From positions 4,269-15,089 of the forward strand of contig CAZBPC010000083.1 of NCBI GenBank assembly GCA_964493715.1: a stretch of 10,821 nucleotides of DNA, written 5' to 3'. The translations under genes were made by a program, and so were the position numbers. Position 1 is the stretch's first letter; each line of letters begins with the position of its first letter. Below, one piece after another: positions 191 to 10,821 of the stretch. Under the pieces are notes generated by a model. It ran no database searches, had not been told where the DNA came from, and was given only the letters and a program-made list of their open reading frames with translations. The stretch is from an uncultured archaeon. Its GTDB lineage: Archaea > Asgardarchaeota > Lokiarchaeia > Sigyniarchaeales > SOKP01.

Positions 191-478
191 ATGACAATAC
201 TAGTTAAAATCTTTGGAAATTTGCGAAACAAAATTAAGGATGTGGAATCCGATGGGGCTCTACCACTCACTTTACAGGTCAATTCTGAAAAGATTGAACG
301 TATCTCTGATATACTACAAAAGTTTTCAATTGAAAAAAACGAAACAAGCCATATTTTTGTGAATGGAGTTTATGCGGGATTCAATAAAAAAGTAAAAGAT
401 GGAGATAGAGTGGGATTATTTTCTAAAAATCAAGCTCTTTTATATAAATGGTATTTCAAGAGAGAAGAAGATGACTGA
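191..478 (+). CDS. MoaD/ThiS-like beta-grasp protein lacking the C-terminal Gly-Gly
   Basis: I.VK.FGNLR start, IFVNG and K.K.GDRVGLF match the MoaD/SAMP fold. It ends SKNQALLYKWYFKREEDD instead of PPxxGG. Confidence 0.8.
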   Translation: MTILVKIFGNLRNKIKDVESDGALPLTLQVNSEKIERISDILQKFSIEKNETSHIFVNGVYAGFNKKVKDGDRVGLFSKNQALLYKWYFKREEDD

Positions 479-719
479 AAATAATTCAATCACAGTAACA
501 ATAAAACTATTCGCAAATTTAAGGGAACTGGGTCCAGCCAAGTCTATCGAAAAATTTCAAAAAGATACGAAAGTTCAAGTTATACTAGATAAATATCACT
601 TACCGTTCAATGAAATGAAATTAATCATTCTCATCAATGGTAAACCGCACATTACTCCCGATCACATCCTAAATGATGGAGATGTTCTAGCGATATTCCC
701 TCCTATGGCAGGAGGATAA
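471..719 (+). CDS. moaD: MoaD/SAMP-type ubiquitin-like sulfur carrier (82 aa)
   Basis: VTIKLFANLRE...ILING...LNDGDVLAIFPPMAGG*. Start reassigned from 399 to ATG 471, which overlaps the upstream stop (ATGACTGA). Confidence 0.92.
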   Translation: MTENNSITVTIKLFANLRELGPAKSIEKFQKDTKVQVILDKYHLPFNEMKLIILINGKPHITPDHILNDGDVLAIFPPMAGG

Positions 720-3025: not shown

Positions 3026-3427
3026 TTGAAAATTGCAATAAGTACAGATTCGGGTCAAGTATGTCCTCATTTTGGTCGTGCGCCAGAATTTACCTTCATA
3101 ACTATTGAGAATAGTGAAATAATTGGGAAAGAAGTTCTCCCAAATCCCGGGCATACAGTAGGAAGCATTCCAAAATTCTTGAGCGAACAGGGAGCTAACT
3201 ACATCATTTCGGGTGGAATGGGTAGTAGAGCAGTCCAATTCTTCAATCAGTATAACATAGAAGTTATAACGGGGGTTGAAGGTAGTATTGATAGTGTAAT
3301 AAAAGAATTCATAAATGGAACATTAGAAGGTACAGATGGTATTTGCACTCCTGGAGCGGGTAAAGGATATGGAATCGAAAAAATCCATACTGAAGCTGAT
3401 GATGATCAAGAACAACACCATCATTAA
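3026..3427 (+). CDS. NifB/NifX-family (Nitro_FeMo-Co, COG1433) metal-cluster-binding protein
   Basis: KIAI...VCPHFGRAPEF, IISGGMGSRA, IEVITGVEG. C-terminal Cys plus acidic/His tail. TTG start. Confidence 0.9.
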   Translation: MKIAISTDSGQVCPHFGRAPEFTFITIENSEIIGKEVLPNPGHTVGSIPKFLSEQGANYIISGGMGSRAVQFFNQYNIEVITGVEGSIDSVIKEFINGTLEGTDGICTPGAGKGYGIEKIHTEADDDQEQHHH

Positions 3428-3482
3428 ATACAACTTTAATGAGTATTATTAAATTATTATTATTATTAATACACTTGAAATC

Positions 3483-4727
3483 TTGACAGATACTGGTAAA
3501 GACGGGATTAGATTGAAGTTTTATGAAAATTTATTATTTATCAACATAATTCTTTTAATCATAAGTATTTCTCTATTCGTCTTTAAACTCGTGTTTAGTA
3601 TGCTTACTAATAGCATAGCACTCCAAGCGGATGCTTTTGATAGCATGACTGATATCGTTATCTATCTATCTGGTATAATTGGGTTTGTTTTTGCTAATAA
3701 GAAACCAAATGAAAAATTTCCATATGGGTATTATAAAATAGAGAACATAATAAGTCTCATTATCTCTCTATTCATTTTTTTGACAGCTTATAACATTATA
3801 GTTCAAGGATTTAAAGATATAATCAATTATTTCAATGGAATTCCAAAATTAACTTTTTTTTTAAATGATGTGTTTATTTTCTTAGTGATCTCATTAACTT
3901 TATCACTATCAATAACAATTTACTTGAAATACGTGTCCAAGAGAACTAATTCACCAATTCTTAAATCTGAAGCAAATGAAAAAATGTCGGATATATTTAT
4001 TTCTTTATCAGTTTTAATAGGTTTTATTGGAATTTTGTTTAATTTCAACCTTTTAGATTCCATTTTTGGTTTAATCATTGTTATTTTCATCATCAAGGCT
4101 GGATACGATATTTTTATCGTGTCCATAAGAACATTACTCGATGCAGTCATAGACTTTGAAAATCGGTCAGAACTCTATAAAATGATCGAAAACGCTCCAA
4201 AAATTAAAAAAATTAAAAAGTTAGATGTTAGAGCTTATGGTAGGTTTATATTTTTAGAATTAGAGCTCATTCTAAATAAAAATTTTCCATTATCTCAAAT
4301 CAATTCTCTAAAAAACAAGTTAAGAATGGAGATCACACAAAAATTCCCCCTAATTCTCAAAATTATAATCATCATTGATAATGCTGAAAAATATGAAACG
4401 AAAATTGCTGTGCCTTTAAGAGATTCGCAAGGGTTAAATTCAAAAATCTCTGATCATTTTGGAGAAAGTCCATTTTTTGGATTTTTGGAATTTCAAGAAG
4501 GTAATTTTTTAAAATTAGAGATTGTGAAAAATGAATTTATCAATCAAGCAAAAAGAAAAGGAATTCTAATATCAGATTGGCTCAGTACACAAAAAGTTGA
4601 TAAAGTATATGTTAAAAATGAATTAAAAAAAGGACCTTCTCTAATATTTGAAAATAATTTTGTAGAAATAATAATAATTGATTTTGAAACATTAAACAAC
4701 ATATTACAAATCGAAAAGGACAAATAA
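3483..4727 (+). CDS. Cation diffusion facilitator (FieF-like) fused to C-terminal NifB/NifX domain
   Basis: SIALQADAFDSMTD, KPNEKFPYGYYKIEN, hydrophobic TM segments. From about aa 307, KIAVPL...ISDHFGESPFF marks a NifX-like domain. TTG start is uncertain. Confidence 0.9.
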   Translation: MTDTGKDGIRLKFYENLLFINIILLIISISLFVFKLVFSMLTNSIALQADAFDSMTDIVIYLSGIIGFVFANKKPNEKFPYGYYKIENIISLIISLFIFLTAYNIIVQGFKDIINYFNGIPKLTFFLNDVFIFLVISLTLSLSITIYLKYVSKRTNSPILKSEANEKMSDIFISLSVLIGFIGILFNFNLLDSIFGLIIVIFIIKAGYDIFIVSIRTLLDAVIDFENRSELYKMIENAPKIKKIKKLDVRAYGRFIFLELELILNKNFPLSQINSLKNKLRMEITQKFPLILKIIIIIDNAEKYETKIAVPLRDSQGLNSKISDHFGESPFFGFLEFQEGNFLKLEIVKNEFINQAKRKGILISDWLSTQKVDKVYVKNELKKGPSLIFENNFVEIIIIDFETLNNILQIEKDK

Positions 4728-4789: not shown

Positions 4790-7072
4790 TTATCTATAAA
4801 AGTCACTTGGTGTGTCTTTAATCTGATCTTTATAAGACTTTTTAGCCTTATCAGCGCCTAGCTTGATCTTATCGATCGCTACTTCGAATTCATCTTGGGA
4901 AATAAAAACAGTTTTATAAGATTCAGGATCTAAGATGTTGATATTTTTATCTTTAACGGCTCTTCGAATTGCTAATAATGTTGCTTCTTCACATATTGCT
5001 TTGATGTCAGCACCCGTATAGCCTTCTAATAATTCTGCAAGTTTTTCAACATCAATATTTTGATTTACAGGTCGATTCGAAAGATGGATTTTGAAGATTT
5101 CAATTCTTGATGTCTTATTTGGCAATGGAACCTCTATATGTCTTCCAAAACGTCCTGAGCGCAGTAACGCAGGATCTAATAAATCAGGTCGGTTTGTTGC
5201 AGCAATGAGTACAACATTGTGTAATTCTTCTAAACCATCCATTTCTGTTAATAATTGTGCAACTACTTGTTCAACAACATGAGAGCCAGATCCTTCTGAT
5301 CTTTTTACCGCAATAGCATCAATCTCATCAAAAAAAATGATACAAGGTGCTGCAGCTCGTGCTTTTCTAAATGTTTCTCTTACGGCTTTTGCACTATCTC
5401 CAACCCATTTTGATAAAAATTCCGGACCCTTAATCGAGATGAAATTTATTTCTGTTTCATGAGCGAGTGCTTTAACCATCAATGTTTTTCCCGCCCCTGG
5501 AACTCCAAATAGCAAAATTCCATTAGGTGGTTTGGATTTCATATGATCATAAAATCCCGGATAGATAAATGGCCATTCAATAGTTTCTCTTAATTGTTGC
5601 TTGGCTTCTTCTAATCCTCCAATTTCATCCCATGTTTCGTTTGGTTGAGTAATCATTACTTCTCTTAATGCTGAGGGCTCAATTGAATTTAGAGCTTCAA
5701 TTAGATGATTCATTTTGATATTAAGTTTATTTAAGATTGTCTCAGGTATTGGTTTATCCAAATCAATTTCGGGAATTATTTCTCGAATTGCTAATAAAGC
5801 AGCTTCTTTACATAAAGATTTGATATCAGCACCAACAAATCCATGAGTTTTTTCAGCGATTATTTTTAAATCGACGTCATTTTTTAAAGGCATTCCGCGA
5901 GTATGAATCTGCAAAATTTCATAACGTCCTTTCGTATCCGGGACTTTTATTTCAATTTCTCTATCGAATCGACCAGGTCTTCTTAGGGCAACATCAATGT
6001 TATTGATTTTATTTGTGGCAGCTATGACGATGATTTCACCTCTATTATTTAACCCATCCATAAGAGAAAGTAATTGAGCTACAACTCGAGATTCTACTTG
6101 ATTTTTTCCATCTTCCCTTTTTGGAGCAATTGAATCGAGTTCATCAAGAAAAATTATGGAGGGCGCGTTCATTATCCCCTCTTCAAAAATTCTTCTTAAA
6201 TTTTCTTCACTCTGTCCAAAAAACTTACTCATAATTTCAGGTCCGCTAATACTGATGAAATGGGCATCAGTTTCATAAGCAACTGCTTTTGCTAATAATG
6301 TTTTCCCCGTACCTGGTGGTCCATGAAGCAAAACTCCTTTAGGAGCTTCGATTCCAATTCTTTCAAATAATTCAGGATGACGAAGAGGTAATTCAATTAT
6401 CTCGCGAATTTTTTGAATTGAAAGTGCTAATCCTCCAATATCTTCATAAGTAATATCTTCATAATTAATTTTTTGTAGTTTTTCTTCCAATACACCTCTC
6501 CCAGCTGTTCTGATAGATGGACGTCTTAACTCAGTATAAGCTACATTAGATTTTTCACTAAATAATATTTTAGTGTTAAAATTTATTTTCACAGCGTCTA
6601 ATTCTGGTTTAAAATCTAAAACAACCAAATCAATCCTACGTGCCATTGCATAAAAGCTTAAAATGTCCCCTTTAGTGACAACCCTTTTCTCAAGTTTTCG
6701 TGCTAATGCTTGGGGATCTCTTGGTATTAACGAAAGTCCACTAAAAGTTATACTTTCAGCTTCACTTGCTTCAATTTTCTTAATTTCAACAAGATCATCA
6801 ATTGAAGCTCCCAGATTCTTACGTAACGATGGATCCAATCTAACTATATTCGTTTCTTTATCTTCATTTTTTCCTGTATGTAGTACTGCTACTGTATTTT
6901 TATTAGTAAAAGGATGCACGATTTTAATTATATCCCCAACTTTAAAATTCAGTTCATTGGTTACATGCGGATCAATTCGGATTATACCTCTTCCTGCATC
7001 TTCTTTAAAAGCATCTTTTATTCGTACTTTTCTAGGATTTTCTTGATACAATTTAATCCCAACCATTCTCAT
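4790..7072 (-). CDS. cdc48: Cdc48/p97/VAT type II AAA+ ATPase
   Basis: N-domain ([10 protein letters not shown]), D1 GPPGTGKT / IIFLDELD / RRPGRFDR, D2 GVPGAGKT / IIFFDEID / LLRSGRFG, C-terminal FYR. GAGGG spacing favours the second ATG at 7066. Confidence 0.97.
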
Positions 7073-7136: not shown

Positions 7137-8156
7137 TTACTCTCTTTCTAATAACGTTTTGGCTACATTAAAAGCGTAATTATAGTCATATATTTTTAAA
7201 CCCTTGGACTCGACAGCTTCTTTAAGAATTTGTCCTTCTACATTGGCTTTAAGGCGTCCTAACGCTAAAGCTCCAATTCCAAAAATTCCTGGATAAATCT
7301 CATCATTATCGTGCTTTGGTTTTATTCCTTCAATACCATATGGTGGGACTAAATTAATATCAACCACAATTTTCTTTTGATCATTTGAGATTCTTTCCAT
7401 TAAGTCCCTAGATAAAATCTCTACACCAGCTGCAGCTAATGACCAGATTACATCAGCATCTTTAGCTATTTGATATCTTTCTTCTGGATCTGGAGCAAAT
7501 ATTCCCTTAATTTGAATTGCTTCCTCTCCTGCCTCTTCATTTAATTCCTCTATAAATTTCTTTAAAAATTCTTTATTTGATTTATCCCATGTTTCGACTA
7601 AGAAAACTTGACCTCCAATTTTAGCTCCCAATATTGCTGCTATTCTTGCTACTGGCCCTGCTCCAAATATGACAATTTTTTTGTTTTTGATCGATTCATT
7701 TCCATATTTCTCTTGCATATCATGATTAGTTTTCGCTACAACAGCAGATGCCGTTGTATGTGAACCCCGTGGATCAATAATTACAGGACATTCAAAGGGA
7801 GGAACTAATGATTTTATTACTTCTTTGGCAATTTTTTCTCCTTCCTTTACATTTGAACCACCTATAAAAAAGGTTGTTGGTGCTTTTGGTTTACGGGAGA
7901 AAATTGCATCCTGAACCAGTTTAGGAACTTGATCAACTGTCATTTTACTTATAGGAACTACAATATCAAATCCAGCATCATATGCCATATTAATATCGAA
8001 AGGTGAAGCAATGTCGTCCGTGTCAAAGAAGAAACAAATCTTATCCGATAAATCTGCTTTTTTAATTTTAATTGGTGTCAATTCCAATATGGTTTTTTTT
8101 CCCAAAATACTCTCTATTTGACGATTTAACTCTTTTTCTTGTGTAATTTTACTCAT
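7137..8156 (-). CDS. mtdB: NAD(P)-dependent methylene-tetrahydromethanopterin dehydrogenase (MtdA/MtdB family)
   Basis: FDTD..ASPFDINMAYDAGFD, LVQDAIFSR, FIGG, VPPF, DPRGSHTTASA, Rossmann GAGPVA, DINLVPPYGIEG, GIGALALG.LK: a full set of Mtd family motifs. The A/B/C subtype is not resolved. Confidence 0.88.
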   Translation of the reverse strand: MSKITQEKELNRQIESILGKKTILELTPIKIKKADLSDKICFFFDTDDIASPFDINMAYDAGFDIVVPISKMTVDQVPKLVQDAIFSRKPKAPTTFFIGGSNVKEGEKIAKEVIKSLVPPFECPVIIDPRGSHTTASAVVAKTNHDMQEKYGNESIKNKKIVIFGAGPVARIAAILGAKIGGQVFLVETWDKSNKEFLKKFIEELNEEAGEEAIQIKGIFAPDPEERYQIAKDADVIWSLAAAGVEILSRDLMERISNDQKKIVVDINLVPPYGIEGIKPKHDNDEIYPGIFGIGALALGRLKANVEGQILKEAVESKGLKIYDYNYAFNVAKTLLERE

Positions 8157-8202: not shown

Positions 8203-8931
8203 TTATTTTGAAATTTCGATTTCCTCTTCTATCACTTCATCAATCTCTTCAGTCTTAATGGATCTTTTTATTTGAATTTGTTCAGTTTCAATTCCTAAAT
8301 CTGAAGCAAGTTTCTCCAATCCATTAAAGTGCCTTAAATCGCAAAGGAACAACCCTTTTAGTTTTTTGCCATCAATTGTTTTAGCGGTATTTAATACATT
8401 CATCATCATCCAAGCTTCTCTTACCTTGTATCTTATTTCATCTTCTTGTGAATTATAATCAGTTTGCAAATACTCTTTCCACATGATTAAGCGTTGAAAA
8501 AGTTCATCTTTTTCAGGGATCCCTCCACTTTTTTCAATAATTTCTTTAATTTTTGTTTCAAGAGATTTAAGCATATTTCTGTGCTCATCTAAGGATGCTG
8601 ACAAATAGAATTCAGCATTTTCAGAGATATCAGCATGTTTGAAAGGAATATTTTTCTGTTCAAATAGATTTTTTAGAGGATCTTCACCTGAATTTAAAGG
8701 ACCAACCCAGAAATTTGGTTTTTCCTCTAAAGCCATATCCGGTTTATATTTTTCTATCAATGATTCAATTAATTCTAAATATTCCTTGCTAATTAGATGC
8801 AAATTCCAAATAAGATCCTCCTTCTTCTCTGCAGGCACCTCAAACCACCAATCAATTGGAAATTCTGACTCGATCATTATGAGTTTAAGATGTTTTTCTT
8901 TTAAAGGTTTTAATTCTAATACTTCTGGCAT
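8203..8931 (-). CDS. Hypothetical protein, paralog of 8953-9573, possible TraB/GumN/TIKI (EreA/ChaN-like) fold with helical insert
   Basis: 242-aa ORF with RBS GAGGGA. YKPDMALEE, VREAWM and LFLCDLRHFNGL echo TraB-like motifs. The fold call is tentative. Confidence 0.75.
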   Translation of the reverse strand: MPEVLELKPLKEKHLKLIMIESEFPIDWWFEVPAEKKEDLIWNLHLISKEYLELIESLIEKYKPDMALEEKPNFWVGPLNSGEDPLKNLFEQKNIPFKHADISENAEFYLSASLDEHRNMLKSLETKIKEIIEKSGGIPEKDELFQRLIMWKEYLQTDYNSQEDEIRYKVREAWMMMNVLNTAKTIDGKKLKGLFLCDLRHFNGLEKLASDLGIETEQIQIKRSIKTEEIDEVIEEEIEISK

Positions 8932-8952: not shown

Positions 8953-9573
8953 TTAAAAAATTACATTTTGAATTAGATGTTTTTTGTTATAAGAAATTAC
9001 TTTTGTATTTAATTCTCTTAAAAGTTGCACGACTTGTGGACAGATATCTTCACAAATATCTTCCTGTACAAAATGTACGAAAGAAATTGTGTTTGTATCA
9101 ACTTTTCTAGCCAAGTCTAGCATCTTTTTTACAATCCATTGTGGTCTTAACTTCAAACTCAAAAAATTCTCTCGATCCTGGATTTCTTCGCGAAGCATAT
9201 CTATCCAATTTTTTAGACTCTGCCCTTTATATGACTCCTTATCGTCCATTTTCTCAAATTCTTCAAATAACTCATTTAAAAACTCTTGTTTTGATGAGAT
9301 TTCTTCATATAAATATCCCATTGCATATTCAGGGATATCTAATTGATAATATGGTATTTCCAATTTATCTAATGTTTTAGCAAAAGGAGTCTTACTAAAT
9401 TCTTCCATATCCACCTGAAAGTCAACAGTAACAAAATTGATCTCTTTCTTTTTTAGAAATTCTTCGAGTTTGGATTTATCCTCACTTTGAAAATATTCTG
9501 CATCTTCTTTAGAGGACATATATGAGATTACTTTCTTATTTTTTTTTACCGGTTTTAATTCTAATACTTCCAC
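8953..9573 (-). CDS. Hypothetical protein, paralog of 8203-8931
   Basis: 206-aa ORF, GTG start with RBS GAGGTG. Shares EVLELKPxK, IP[FY]xxxDIxExAxxYL, LxxW and K[VL]RxxW motifs with its neighbour. Confidence 0.8.
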   Translation of the reverse strand: MEVLELKPVKKNKKVISYMSSKEDAEYFQSEDKSKLEEFLKKKEINFVTVDFQVDMEEFSKTPFAKTLDKLEIPYYQLDIPEYAMGYLYEEISSKQEFLNELFEEFEKMDDKESYKGQSLKNWIDMLREEIQDRENFLSLKLRPQWIVKKMLDLARKVDTNTISFVHFVQEDICEDICPQVVQLLRELNTKVISYNKKHLIQNVIF

Positions 9574-9654: not shown

Positions 9655-9839
9655 TTTGACAAGAAGAATTTTATTCTGTTTGATAATTTAGTTTGTCAAT
9701 TGTTTAAAGTTAATAAATCGCATAATCATGAGAAATCGTCAATCAAATGTTGAAAGTCAACATATAGATGATCGAATTCTTACATAGATTTATAAATTTA
9801 GATCACTTCTAATGTCATGATGAAAAATTTATTTGTCAA
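9655..9839. promoter_or_regulatory. Divergent promoter with palindromic TATA (TTTATAAA 9789-9796) and repeated TTGAC/GTCAA sites
   Basis: TTGAC 9656-9660, GTCAA at 9695, 9738, 9756 and 9835. Inverted repeat ATGTTGA-AAG-TCAACAT at 9747-9763. Related 20-mers at 9680-9699 and 9820-9839. Confidence 0.55.
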
Positions 9840-9881
9840 AAAATAATAATAAACAAAAAAAAAAAATTGGGTGAATGTAGT

Positions 9882-10821
9882 ATGGACGCTTATTCCATTT
9901 TATCTCATCCATTTAGGCGTAAAATTTTATATCTCTTAGAAAGAGAGGGTTATATTCAATATTCAGAAATAATGGAAAGACTTGGTTTAGAATTAACCGG
10001 GCAACTAAATTTTCATTTAAAAAAACTTGGTTCATTAATTGGAAAAGAAAGAAAATCGTATTATTTAACTGAGGATGGTAAAAGAATCCTTAATATGATG
10101 AATTTAAATAAACGCATCTTAGATGGAGAAGAAATTGAACATTTAATCTCAAAAGGTAGTAACTTAAACAGAATTGGTATTATCGTGTGTAATTGCAATG
10201 GGGAAATCTCAAATAATATAAACGTGAATAATCTTATAAATGAACTAAATAATTTGAAAAACGTTGTTTCAATAAGAGTTTTTGAAAACTTATGCCAAGA
10301 AATAAATTTAGAAAAAGTTACAAATTGGGTCAAAGAAAACTTCTTAAATAAAATTGTAATCGCTGCTTGTTCTCCAAAGAGTCATAAACATATAATTGAA
10401 CAGATGTTTGAAGATATTATTGATTATGCAAACATCGAATTTGCTAATATTAGGGAACAATGTTGTTGGGCGCATCAAAACCACAAAAGCCAGATAAGTC
10501 CTCTAATTATCTCTCGAAAAGCATTTTTAATAATAGAAGCAGCAGTAGAAAGAGTGATTCTTCAAGGACCCATTAAAATTAAAAAGGTAGAAGTCGAGAA
10601 TTCCTGTGCTATCTTTGGTGGAGGCATAGCAGGAATGAATTTAGCATTAAATTTAGCACGTGCAGGAATTAAAGTGTACTTAATTGAAAAATCACCCACA
10701 CTTGGGGGAAAAATAGCTCGTTGGCATCGTATATCCAATATGGGGGATTGTTCGATTTGTTTCGTATCTGAATTAATTGGAGAAATTGTCAAACGTGATG
10801 AGATCGAAATTCATACAAATA
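9882..10821 (+). CDS. Winged-helix (ArsR-like) DNA-binding domain fused to heterodisulfide reductase A (HdrA)-like protein, 3'-truncated by window
   Basis: My translation is open for 313 codons from ATG 9882 (RBS GGTGA). aa 1-70: LSHPFRRKILYLL...YSEIMERLGL..TGQLNFHLKKLGSLI....YYLTEDGK. From aa 97: RIGIIVCNCNGEI, LC, VIAACSPKSH, ANIREQCCWAH, GGGIAG, VYLIEKSPTLGG, DCSIC. Absent from ORF track because there is no stop in the window. Confidence 0.92.
   Translation, partial: MDAYSILSHPFRRKILYLLEREGYIQYSEIMERLGLELTGQLNFHLKKLGSLIGKERKSYYLTEDGKRILNMMNLNKRILDGEEIEHLISKGSNLNRIGIIVCNCNGEISNNINVNNLINELNNLKNVVSIRVFENLCQEINLEKVTNWVKENFLNKIVIAACSPKSHKHIIEQMFEDIIDYANIEFANIREQCCWAHQNHKSQISPLIISRKAFLIIEAAVERVILQGPIKIKKVEVENSCAIFGGGIAGMNLALNLARAGIKVYLIEKSPTLGGKIARWHRISNMGDCSICFVSELIGEIVKRDEIEIHTN

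Follow-up and report, generated by a model that had tools for sequence, protein, structure and literature searches.

The 10,821-nucleotide stretch of DNA analysed here (hereafter the window) covers positions 4,269 to 15,089 of contig CAZBPC010000083.1 (C83) in assembly GCA_964493715.1, which derives from an uncultured archaeon of the Lokiarchaeia (Asgardarchaeota; Sigyniarchaeales; SOKP01). At its 3' end lies an open reading frame (9882-10820, + strand) that starts with an ATG at 9882, stays open for 313 codons up to the window's last complete codon and joins a winged helix-turn-helix (wHTH) domain to the beginning of heterodisulfide reductase subunit A (HdrA). The 3' end of the window is also that of contig C83 (15089 nt), which truncates the gene; a full-length orthologue, P0002, has 847 amino acids (aa) and is 93% identical to the part encoded in the window. 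The features of the gene, in which FAD denotes flavin adenine dinucleotide and AF2 denotes AlphaFold2, are as follows.

9870-9874, + strand: GGTGA ribosome-binding-like site, by sequence reading (putative function)
9882..10820, + strand: 5' part of the wHTH-hdrA-mvhD gene, an open frame of about 848 codons in orthologues
9882..10070, + strand: wHTH core, aa 1-63, from Pfam DUF7347, AF2, Foldseek and an alignment of 32 proteins
9996-10037, + strand: recognition helix within the wHTH core, aa 39-52, with the conserved TGQLNFHLKKL
Within 9882..10070, + strand: wing of the wHTH core, aa 53-62
10071..10172, + strand: helix alpha5 (aa 64-80) and linker helix (aa 85-97) leading into HdrA, from AF2 secondary structure and a homodimer model
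10170..10586, + strand: HdrA N-terminal domain with the HA3 Cys ligands C103, C105, C138, C163 and C194/195, from P0002 aligned to 5odc_A and 8rvu_a
10587..10820, + strand: start of the FAD domain, from Pfam Rossmann matches at aa 242-283 and alignments
10617-10634, + strand: GGGIAG, within the start of the FAD domain
10746-10760, + strand: DCSIC Cys pair, preceded by EKSPTLGG and the clade-specific ARWHRI

An in-frame TTG at 9867 lies upstream of the ATG. The N-termini of the orthologues coincide with the residue encoded by ATG 9882, and GGTGA is placed 8-12 nt before it. The junction at 10090-10170 was spanned by contigs of four out of four other public runs with zero differences, indels or joints, and a 2254-nt contig among them reaches approximately 1.3 kb beyond the window end. 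A preliminary description of this DNA, made from the sequence alone, had claimed an uninterrupted frame from the wHTH into HdrA and had singled out this junction as the place where read support matters; the 313 stop-free codons and the bridging contigs bear the claim out.

The same architecture was found repeatedly in databases. A protein search among longer proteins gave 1463 matches at E <= 1e-3; the best 120 of these are 64-93% identical across the whole query, nearly all have 831-855 residues and, as we read the results, PF24038 is missing from only one of them, a partial protein. When the search was scored on residues 1-96 only, 142 database proteins matched, and the 120 of them listed all have the HdrA architecture, every named one belonging to an Asgard lineage. 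Among 199 genomes of the phylum, 44 matched a profile of residues 1-100, at 45 places in total (wHTH E <= 1.5e-36); the frames are 699-896 aa long apart from one of 389 aa and that of the window, which the contig end cuts to 336 aa. The fusion is thus conserved in five families, at 28 of 39 genomes in f1, three of six in f19, four of five in f16, six of 19 in f12 and three of 43 in f7, which answers the earlier call to look for the architecture across Asgard archaea. Since the next-best profile match reached only 1.8e-19 and fell on other DUF7347 proteins, the 199 genomes hold no close stand-alone copy of the wHTH; neither a stand-alone nor a split close copy was found in these genomes or among database proteins of 465-1483 aa, a size range that leaves out short database proteins. 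In a tree calculated without the wHTH, 13 fusion proteins from the five families are separated from seven wHTH-less paralogues with a branch support of 100/100. A single origin of the fusion would be the simplest reading, though unproven with paralogues that all come from the window's genome only.

Residues 2-72 matched Pfam DUF7347 (E 6.3e-12, 46 bits; cut-off 27.6), and HTH_24 scored 21.8 bits at the N-terminus, 0.1 bit short of its cut-off of 21.9. The AF2 model of the domain has a predicted local distance difference test (pLDDT) score of 85.6 and the ArsR order a1-a2-b-a3-aR-b-b-a5. Foldseek gave no match at E <= 1e-3 (best 1.9e-3, TMq up to 0.69), and its best rows were YodB, CadC, OhrR, ArsR, SmtB, CzrA and NolR on DNA; every row listed is a wHTH regulator or a related DNA-binding factor, with dimeric wHTH regulators at the top. 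The best sequence match of the domain in the Protein Data Bank (PDB) is the putative ArsR 1y0u (E 0.007). The family match, the topology and the fold neighbours all agree with the ArsR-like wHTH that had been proposed for the N-terminus. Over the first 100 residues, 32 proteins from the five families align nearly without gaps and share 14 invariant columns, TGxLN(F/Y)HLKKL being near-invariant. Identity of the wHTH to that of the window is 36-89% and tracks the identity of the whole protein and of the enzyme part. Judging from this alignment and from an identity like that of the enzyme part, the wHTH is under selection.

A two-copy model of residues 1-84 scored 0.42, compared with 0.00 for the best of three controls, and its interface comprises residues 2-13 and 68-82 (contact agreement at least 91%, pLDDT at least 86). 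The predicted dimer interface is accordingly formed by alpha1 (aa 2-13) and alpha5. The mark used for dimers was reached by 20 of 30 proteins solved as one-chain pairs and by one of 23 solved as single chains. No Cys is present in aa 1-102, nor is there a recognisable metal site. As the domain lacks Cys, the wHTH is not itself a thiol or metal sensor, and the HdrA body would have to be the source of any signal. Elsewhere in the window's genome (G000), DUF7347 wHTH domains are encoded at C17:41618-42133 (-), C17:42250-42750 (-), C1:140374-140979 (+), C30:14140-15036 (+) and C3:20122-22098 (-), where they are N-terminal on proteins that by eye seem to be multi-pass membrane proteins and on a 658-aa protein of unknown type. 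The tandem copy C17:41618-42133 contains an in-frame TAA.

In the enzyme part, the window copy has CNC at aa 103-105, NLCQE at 136-140, AACSP at 161-165, REQCCW at 191-196, GGGIAG at 246-251, EKSPTLGG at 269-276 and IARWHRISNMGDCSIC at 278-293 (DCSIC at 289-293); all the Cys and FAD motifs named in the preliminary description (CxC, C, AACSP, REQCxW, GGGIAG, EKSPTLGG and DCxxC) are present. Solved HdrA chains align end to end with P0002 from residue 96/97 to 713/715 (5odc_A and four further HdrA sequences, E 2.5e-99 for 5odc_A and 2.5e-99 to 1.4e-79 over the whole range), so residues 1-96 are extra to HdrA. Residues 721-840 of P0002 align with solved MvhD chains, with Pfam FlpD/MvhD at 724-839, and two Pfam 4Fe-4S motifs lie at 648-700. 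The inserted and C-terminal 2x[4Fe-4S] ferredoxin domains, visible as CxxCxxCxxxC pairs in P0002, are seen in orthologues only and lie beyond the cut of the window copy. By these alignments, the order of the full protein is wHTH, helical linker, complete HdrA and fused MvhD. The HA3 Cys ligands align to HdrA Cys positions and are kept in the five families, and the other cluster Cys except those of HA4 (two ferredoxin domains and the MvhD part) are kept in seven aligned class-1 proteins. The FAD motif is kept as well. The rate of evolution of the enzyme part does not exceed that of the wHTH. Among NCBIfam models, NF040770 (HdrA2 HdrA-MvhD fusion) matches best, covering residues 97-840 with E 2.2e-161 and 538.6 bits against a cut-off of 1100. 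Public records name these proteins "hydrogenase iron-sulfur subunit", "FAD-dependent oxidoreductase" or "heterodisulfide reductase subunit A".

Two parts of the enzyme deviate from classical HdrA. In the alignment to solved HdrA, the canonical MAQLDKTFPTNDCSIC faces VARWHRISNMGDCSIC, and the fusion clade carries the signature GGK(V/I)ARWxRIxxxxDCxxC, compared with GGxMAQLDKTFPTxDCSIC in the paralogues and in solved HdrA. The ARW signature is also seen in database relatives; the replaced FAD-proximal segment with retained Cys, first noticed in this single copy, is real and marks the whole fusion clade. The second deviation concerns HA4. According to PMC13580544, HA4 is the path of the high-potential electron from FAD toward HdrB/HdrBC, the N-terminal HA3 is a shuttle cluster on a mobile arm, and the DCSIC pair sits between the MvhD cluster and FAD. 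The HA4 four-Cys motif CVGSRD...YCSxVCC (approximately aa 470-500 of P0002) is complete in members of f16, f12 and f7 and is lost in f1 and f19, where all four Cys are present in none of 130 database relatives longer than 600 aa; the window copy stops at aa 313, before the HA4 site, and its HA4 state is read from orthologues. Given this loss, the window's lineage would be without the wire to HdrBC, with the rest kept, and the module would have departed from classical heterodisulfide chemistry. As f1 and f19 are sisters in the tree (support 89/86), one loss of HA4 would suffice. Together with the lack of an adjacent hdrB described below, the HA4 loss suggests that the high-potential branch has changed.

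Directly 3' of the fusion gene lie a small-subunit gene (Oxidored_q6, VhuG-like) and then a large-subunit gene (NiFeSe_Hases, VhuA/ShyA-like). The former, mvhG, comes next in all 44 loci with downstream DNA, and the latter, mvhA, follows in 43 of the 44, the contig ending in the remaining locus. MvhA retains RICGLC and the C-terminal DPCISCATH, which we take to be its [NiFe] metal-ligand motifs. On the gene content and motifs of the orthologues, from which the hydrogenase class was taken rather than from phylogeny, the gene is the first of an mvhG-mvhA operon and encodes the electron-routing subunit of a group-3c-type [NiFe] hydrogenase without an adjacent hdrB. The remainder of the gene, mvhG and mvhA are absent from the window's own assembly, where a tblastn search with P0002 found only paralogues at 26-37% identity beyond aa 313; the genome has at least nine HdrA paralogues. 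The search for hdrB was performed by tblastn with 13 CCG-domain proteins of the window's own genome (hdrC was not searched): no adjacent hdrB was detected, matches being confined to three of 45 stretches (L007, L008 and L041), at least 4 kb off and in other clusters, with flanks of only 1.5 kb at 24 of the 45 loci. The window's genome contains many hdrB-like genes, several of which adjoin wHTH-less hdrA paralogues.

Some loci show additional genes. In one operon variant of f1 (L007, L008, L013, L021, L023 and L030), an frhB-like gene (FrhB_FdhB_N/C and 2x4Fe-4S) is located on the same strand 5' of the fusion gene, and in L007 and L008 the divergent partner of frhB encodes a polyferredoxin/Pyr_redox protein of 472 aa and is accompanied by a small gene. 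Only the closest relatives have a 361-aa gene behind mvhA (L004:14588-15673, also L005 and L006), which is not conserved in the other families; that of L004 has no Pfam family and a weak match to the ArgR N-terminal region (E 1.4e-3).

Divergently from the fusion gene, the window contains a unit of three genes.

8953..9573, - strand: up206, a 206-aa orphan family with no Pfam or NCBIfam match above cut-off, distant paralogue of up242 (E 1e-4)
8203..8931, - strand: up242, 242 aa, homologous to the N-terminal domain of 560-aa Mtd fusions (BLASTP E 5e-47 to L034:1834-3516)
7137..8156, - strand: homologue of Mtd-like methylene-tetrahydromethanopterin dehydrogenase of the nicotinamide adenine dinucleotide (phosphate) [NAD(P)] type, last gene of the unit (Pfam Mpt_N E 8e-26)

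In f1, up206/up242 are the divergent neighbours in 19 of 29 loci; at the others, the frhB-like gene comes first (six loci), the neighbours are different (three) or there is no upstream DNA (one). All three f19 loci have up206 and a 560-aa Mtd fusion as divergent neighbours, and in all eight f12 and f7 loci the Mtd-fusion gene comes after mvhA on the same strand. The flanks of the five f16 loci contain no Mtd fusion. The synteny with mtd that had been put forward for examination thus exists as a linkage of Mtd with the hydrogenase operon in f1, f19, f12 and f7. The Mtd fusion was unmatched in four of five related genomes without the wHTH-hdrA gene.

The up206 and up242 products are paralogous orphan proteins, so far known from Asgard archaea only, and in f19, f12 and f7 the Mtd-like dehydrogenase carries up242 as an N-terminal fusion. 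Their fold gave nothing in Foldseek and a weak ChaN/TraB/GumN-like lead: an atlas match to TraB/GumN of 0.84, which is a lead only, and mostly helical-hairpin rows in VIA-align, whose best whole-domain row was ChaN 2g5g_X (Z 8.3, rmsd 4.4, 151 aligned), rated by the tool in the common range. As a candidate regulator, either protein was rejected, as neither has an HTH family in Pfam or NCBIfam.

The region between the two units contains two inverted repeats and a TATA-like box.

9680..9699, no strand: distal dyad TTGATAA-tttagt-TTGTCAA, 13/14, candidate operator, the sole TTGAYAA-N6-TTRTCAA match in the 3.68-Mb genome
9789..9797, + strand: TATA-like box TTTATAAAT, by sequence reading (putative function)
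9820..9839, no strand: proximal dyad ATGAAAA-atttat-TTGTCAA, 12/14, candidate operator, 62-43 nt 5' of the ATG

The distal dyad is placed 202 nt 5' of the hdrA ATG and 107 nt 5' of the start of the divergent 206-aa gene. The proximal dyad begins approximately 27 nt downstream of the TATA-like box, and it is kept at -50 to -65 in L004, L005, L009, L012, L017, L018 and L020. The upstream regions of the 45 loci (330 nt each) were scored against TTGACAA-N6-TTGTCAA at spacings of 2-11. At N6, 24 of the 45 regions have at least 12/14, compared with 0-5 regions at spacings 2-5 and 7-11, and 11 regions have at least 13/14, compared with 0-1 at other spacings. All six frhB-first loci, which the 330-nt scan missed, carry the dyad upstream of frhB. 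Loci of f12 and f7 have an extra dyad at the Mtd-fusion gene, lying about 80-100 nt 5' of it in L041 and L045-L048 and coinciding with its annotated start in L042 and L044. Symmetrising the half-sites of 56 sites gives tTGA(C/T)AA.

The dyad is specific to the locus. An exact TTGAYAA-N6-TTRTCAA match was found at a single place in each of the genomes G000, G028, G047 and G064, invariably just 5' of the fusion gene, and in none of five related genomes without the fusion gene; a reversed control pattern gave 0-1 matches. As a background, the window's genome has 30 matches of at least 12/14 in 3.68 Mb with spacing 6 not favoured, which predicts approximately 0.1 match over all 45 regions together. 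The arms of the dyad contain C-A mismatches, for example in L017 and L019. A protein site is favoured over an RNA hairpin, as the sequence of the dyad rather than its base-pairing is conserved. No other HTH-bearing gene is conserved in the neighbourhood. The heptamer TTGTCAA taken alone was discarded as a signal (six in the window compared with 3.1 expected, a number reached by 22 of 200 shuffles); the N6 dyad only stands out. A wider regulon was also rejected, because the 30 matches of at least 12/14 show no spacing preference and the only other 13/14 match (C44:11067) lies inside a 1483-aa frame.

From these data, we consider it slightly more probable than even (roughly 55%) that the protein is a trigger enzyme, namely a hydrogenase subunit whose dimeric wHTH autoregulates the hydrogenase and mtd units. 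The wHTH domains would most likely pair in the ArsR style on an HdrA dimer, and the pair would bind TTGAYAA-N6-TTRTCAA at its own promoter and at the up206/up242-mtd promoter, the regulon comprising these two units only. In the usual archaeal geometry, a position about 27 nt past the TATA box is over the transcription start. Because the proximal dyad occupies this position after the TATA-like box, over the expected start, repression would fit as the sign of regulation. Binding may depend on enzyme assembly or redox state, for instance if the wHTH rides the N-terminal mobile arm. The regulatory link to the divergent mtd genes, which the preliminary description had considered plausible, gains comparative support: the dyad is present in the promoter regions of both units and has stayed with the Mtd-fusion gene at loci in which this has moved 3' of mvhA. 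The same description had HdrA repurposed as a redox sensor within a one-component transcription factor, a claim that stands only in part. The loss of HA4 in the window's clade agrees with it, and the complete HdrA-MvhD encoded by the first gene of an mvhG-mvhA operon with intact [NiFe] motifs does not. An enzyme subunit that also carries a regulator domain would be a better label than a stand-alone sensor.

Several points weigh against the trigger-enzyme reading. Its support is wholly computational. The NCBIfam ArsR/SmtB model (HTH_metalloreg) scored 25.3 bits, under the cut-off of 55; the best Foldseek E-value was only 1.9e-3, and the dimer score lies exactly at the mark. The dimer result may moreover reflect likeness or memory, because ArsR dimers have already been solved. 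The operon is deduced from orthologues of 36-93% identity, the window's own mvhG and mvhA being outside the assembly and its hdrA copy stopping at aa 313. The exact dyad pattern was not found in G096 (f12), and the five f16 loci have no clear dyad (best 10-12/14). In G094, an assembly of 320 contigs, two 13/14 dyads (L050, G094:C120, 4007-4134) are located 5' of up206/up242-mtd and no fusion gene was found, so another factor could read the dyad. Either the fusion gene of G094 is unassembled or its dyad is bound by another factor; the fusion gene sits at contig breaks elsewhere. Finally, counts over loci overstate independence because the loci are kin.

The best-surviving alternative, which we regard as unlikely but deserving of consideration, is that the wHTH is not a specific DNA binder and acts on the hydrogenase complex as a module for dimerisation or docking, with the dyad read by a separate factor encoded elsewhere. 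The G094 dyads without a detectable fusion gene and the f16 fusion genes without a clear dyad speak for it, and wHTH domains of the window's genome also occur on membrane proteins and on the 658-aa protein. Furthermore, the recognition helix is unusually invariant between families of 36-50% identity, as a protein interface might be. However, the dyad core TGAYAA is kept in the same families as the helix, and DNA-binding ArsR-like repressors have this same fold, an alpha1/alpha5 dimer and a recognition helix of the S/T-x-x-H-L-x-x-L type. As the dyad occurs once per genome and always at the fusion locus, the other reader would have to be a factor serving this one locus alone, and none is conserved nearby.

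It is improbable that the HdrA body is no longer an enzyme and acts solely as the FAD/Fe-S redox sensor of a one-component factor. Such a role would accommodate the absence of the HA4 four-Cys motif from the window's clade (0/130), HA4 being described as the route to HdrBC in PMC13580544, as well as the clade-wide replacement of the FAD-proximal segment and the lack of an adjacent hdrB (a CCG-domain gene in three of 45 stretches, at least 4 kb distant). Against it, the other cluster Cys ligands and the FAD motif are kept where aligned, MvhD is fused, mvhG and mvhA with intact [NiFe] motifs follow downstream, and the enzyme part shows no accelerated evolution relative to the wHTH; f16, f12 and f7 members, in addition, keep HA4 yet carry the wHTH. 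Still less probable, and in our view very doubtful, is a wHTH that anchors the hydrogenase to the nucleoid by binding DNA largely irrespective of sequence, the dyad being an unrelated promoter element. A weak NCBIfam match to the Sso10a chromatin-protein family (E 0.0042, under cut-off) and a net charge of only +2 for aa 1-84 count in favour of this idea, which leaves the spacing-specific, genome-unique dyad travelling with the associated genes unexplained, and the fold neighbours are sequence-specific repressors. A chimera, missed stop or frameshift in the window's contig, which the contig-end position and the at least nine HdrA paralogues might invite, is ruled out for practical purposes by the four bridging runs without differences and by the recurrence of the architecture in 44 of 199 genomes and in the 142 database proteins matched via the wHTH alone.

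The trigger-enzyme reading can be extended to a bolder model, which we put forward only tentatively and think rather unlikely as a whole: the hydrogenase would be its own sensor and, lacking HA4, a new electron-bifurcating type with a new high-potential partner and a built-in one-component regulator. The wHTH would be carried by the N-terminal arm of HdrA as this swings, in the course of turnover, from MvhD/FAD on one side to ferredoxin on the other and back, and one redox or assembly state alone would let two wHTHs pair and clamp the dyad. The poise of H2 and ferredoxin would in that case directly determine how strongly the hydrogenase and the up242-Mtd C1 dehydrogenase are transcribed. In f1 and f19, HA4 loss and ARWxRI next to FAD would mean an exit from heterodisulfide chemistry, and the new high-potential partner may be either NAD(P) itself or the Mtd-type NAD(P) protein, to which the module is phyletically linked and with which it would be co-regulated.

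The Asgard protein resembles several known systems in part. The HdrA of the methanogen MvhAGD-HdrABC complex (PDB 5odc, 8rvu and 7bkb) is alike over its whole chain to residues 97-713 of P0002, with the N-terminal Fe-S domain, the FAD site, DCSIC, the inserted and C-terminal ferredoxin domains, and MvhD, MvhG and MvhA as partners. In contrast to the methanogen protein, the Asgard protein has 96 extra N-terminal residues forming the wHTH, MvhD fused C-terminally, no adjacent hdrB, ARWxRI before DCSIC and, in f1 and f19, no HA4 Cys. HdrA2 of Methanosarcina (NF040770), which works with HdrB2C2, has the same HdrA-MvhD order; the Asgard protein differs in scoring about half the cut-off of that model (538.6 bits vs 1100), in possessing the wHTH that HdrA2 lacks and in its neighbours mvhG and mvhA. 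Repressors of the ArsR/SmtB type (CadC, SmtB, CzrA and NolR; also YodB) share the fold order, the predicted a1/a5 dimer and a candidate dyad operator with the Asgard wHTH, whereas the latter has no Cys or metal site and forms the N-terminus of an 848-aa enzyme subunit instead of a small separate protein.

Enzymes that double as regulators offer a further comparison. PutA of enteric bacteria is a flavoenzyme with a DNA-binding domain in one polypeptide, and its operator lies in the divergent promoter region of its target genes; BirA and NadR are other trigger enzymes. The Asgard protein likewise combines an enzyme and a DNA-binding domain in one chain beside a locus-specific dyad, of which it would be the binder. 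Unlike PutA, which uses a ribbon-helix-helix domain and a membrane-association switch, it is a hydrogenase-linked Fe-S flavoprotein with a wHTH, and its DNA binding and switch are predicted. HoxBC/HupUV are bacterial group 2b H2-sensing [NiFe] hydrogenases that act via HoxJ/HoxA. A hydrogenase module passing information on H2 to the transcription of hydrogenase genes is also what we propose here, but the bacterial sensors signal via a separate kinase and response regulator, whereas in the Asgard system the catalytic complex itself would carry the DNA-binding domain on one of its subunits. A full-text literature search, which does not extend to supplementary tables that may list domain architectures, found no paper on an HTH-HdrA fusion or on DUF7347, in line with the earlier supposition that the architecture is undescribed. 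HdrA-MvhD fusions have been noted in Loki- and Thorarchaeota, with no HTH mentioned in the available part of that report (PMC11237513).

MvhADG-HdrABC-type enzymes are named as key Asgard hydrogenases in a study on these archaea (Imachi 2020, PMC7015854). Asgard hydrogen metabolism is central to syntrophy models of the origin of eukaryotes. It is our impression, with no search aimed at it, that almost nothing is known about the regulation of Asgard hydrogenases. The present locus offers a compact test system comprising a 96-residue domain, a 20-bp once-per-genome dyad and two target units. If the wHTH does bind the dyad, the pair would be the first known regulator and operator for an Asgard energy-metabolism operon and the protein the first known flavoprotein of the electron-bifurcation type that doubles as a transcription factor, and Pfam DUF7347 would gain a functional assignment. 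The HA4 loss and the tight link to an Mtd-like protein suggest that the reaction is a different one from that implied by the automatic names "heterodisulfide reductase subunit A" and "hydrogenase iron-sulfur subunit". Should the hydrogenase prove to be its own sensor, a new type of electron-bifurcating hydrogenase with a built-in regulator would exist in the archaea closest to eukaryotes.

The rest of the window contains genes of other types. A stand-alone Nitro_FeMo-Co (NifX/NifB-like) protein is encoded at 3026-3427 (+), and the next gene, 3483-4727 (+), encodes a CDF cation-efflux transporter with a C-terminal Nitro_FeMo-Co domain; NifU_N, thioredoxin and radical-SAM genes are located near 3026-4727. 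The gene at 4790-7072 (-) encodes a 760-aa protein with two Walker A boxes that appears CDC48/VCP-like by eye. Two small frames, 191-478 (+) and 399-719 (+), overlap as listed, and their true starts are uncertain; the product of the latter ends in ...PPMAGG and resembles, by eye, ubiquitin-like proteins of the ThiS/MoaD/SAMP type.

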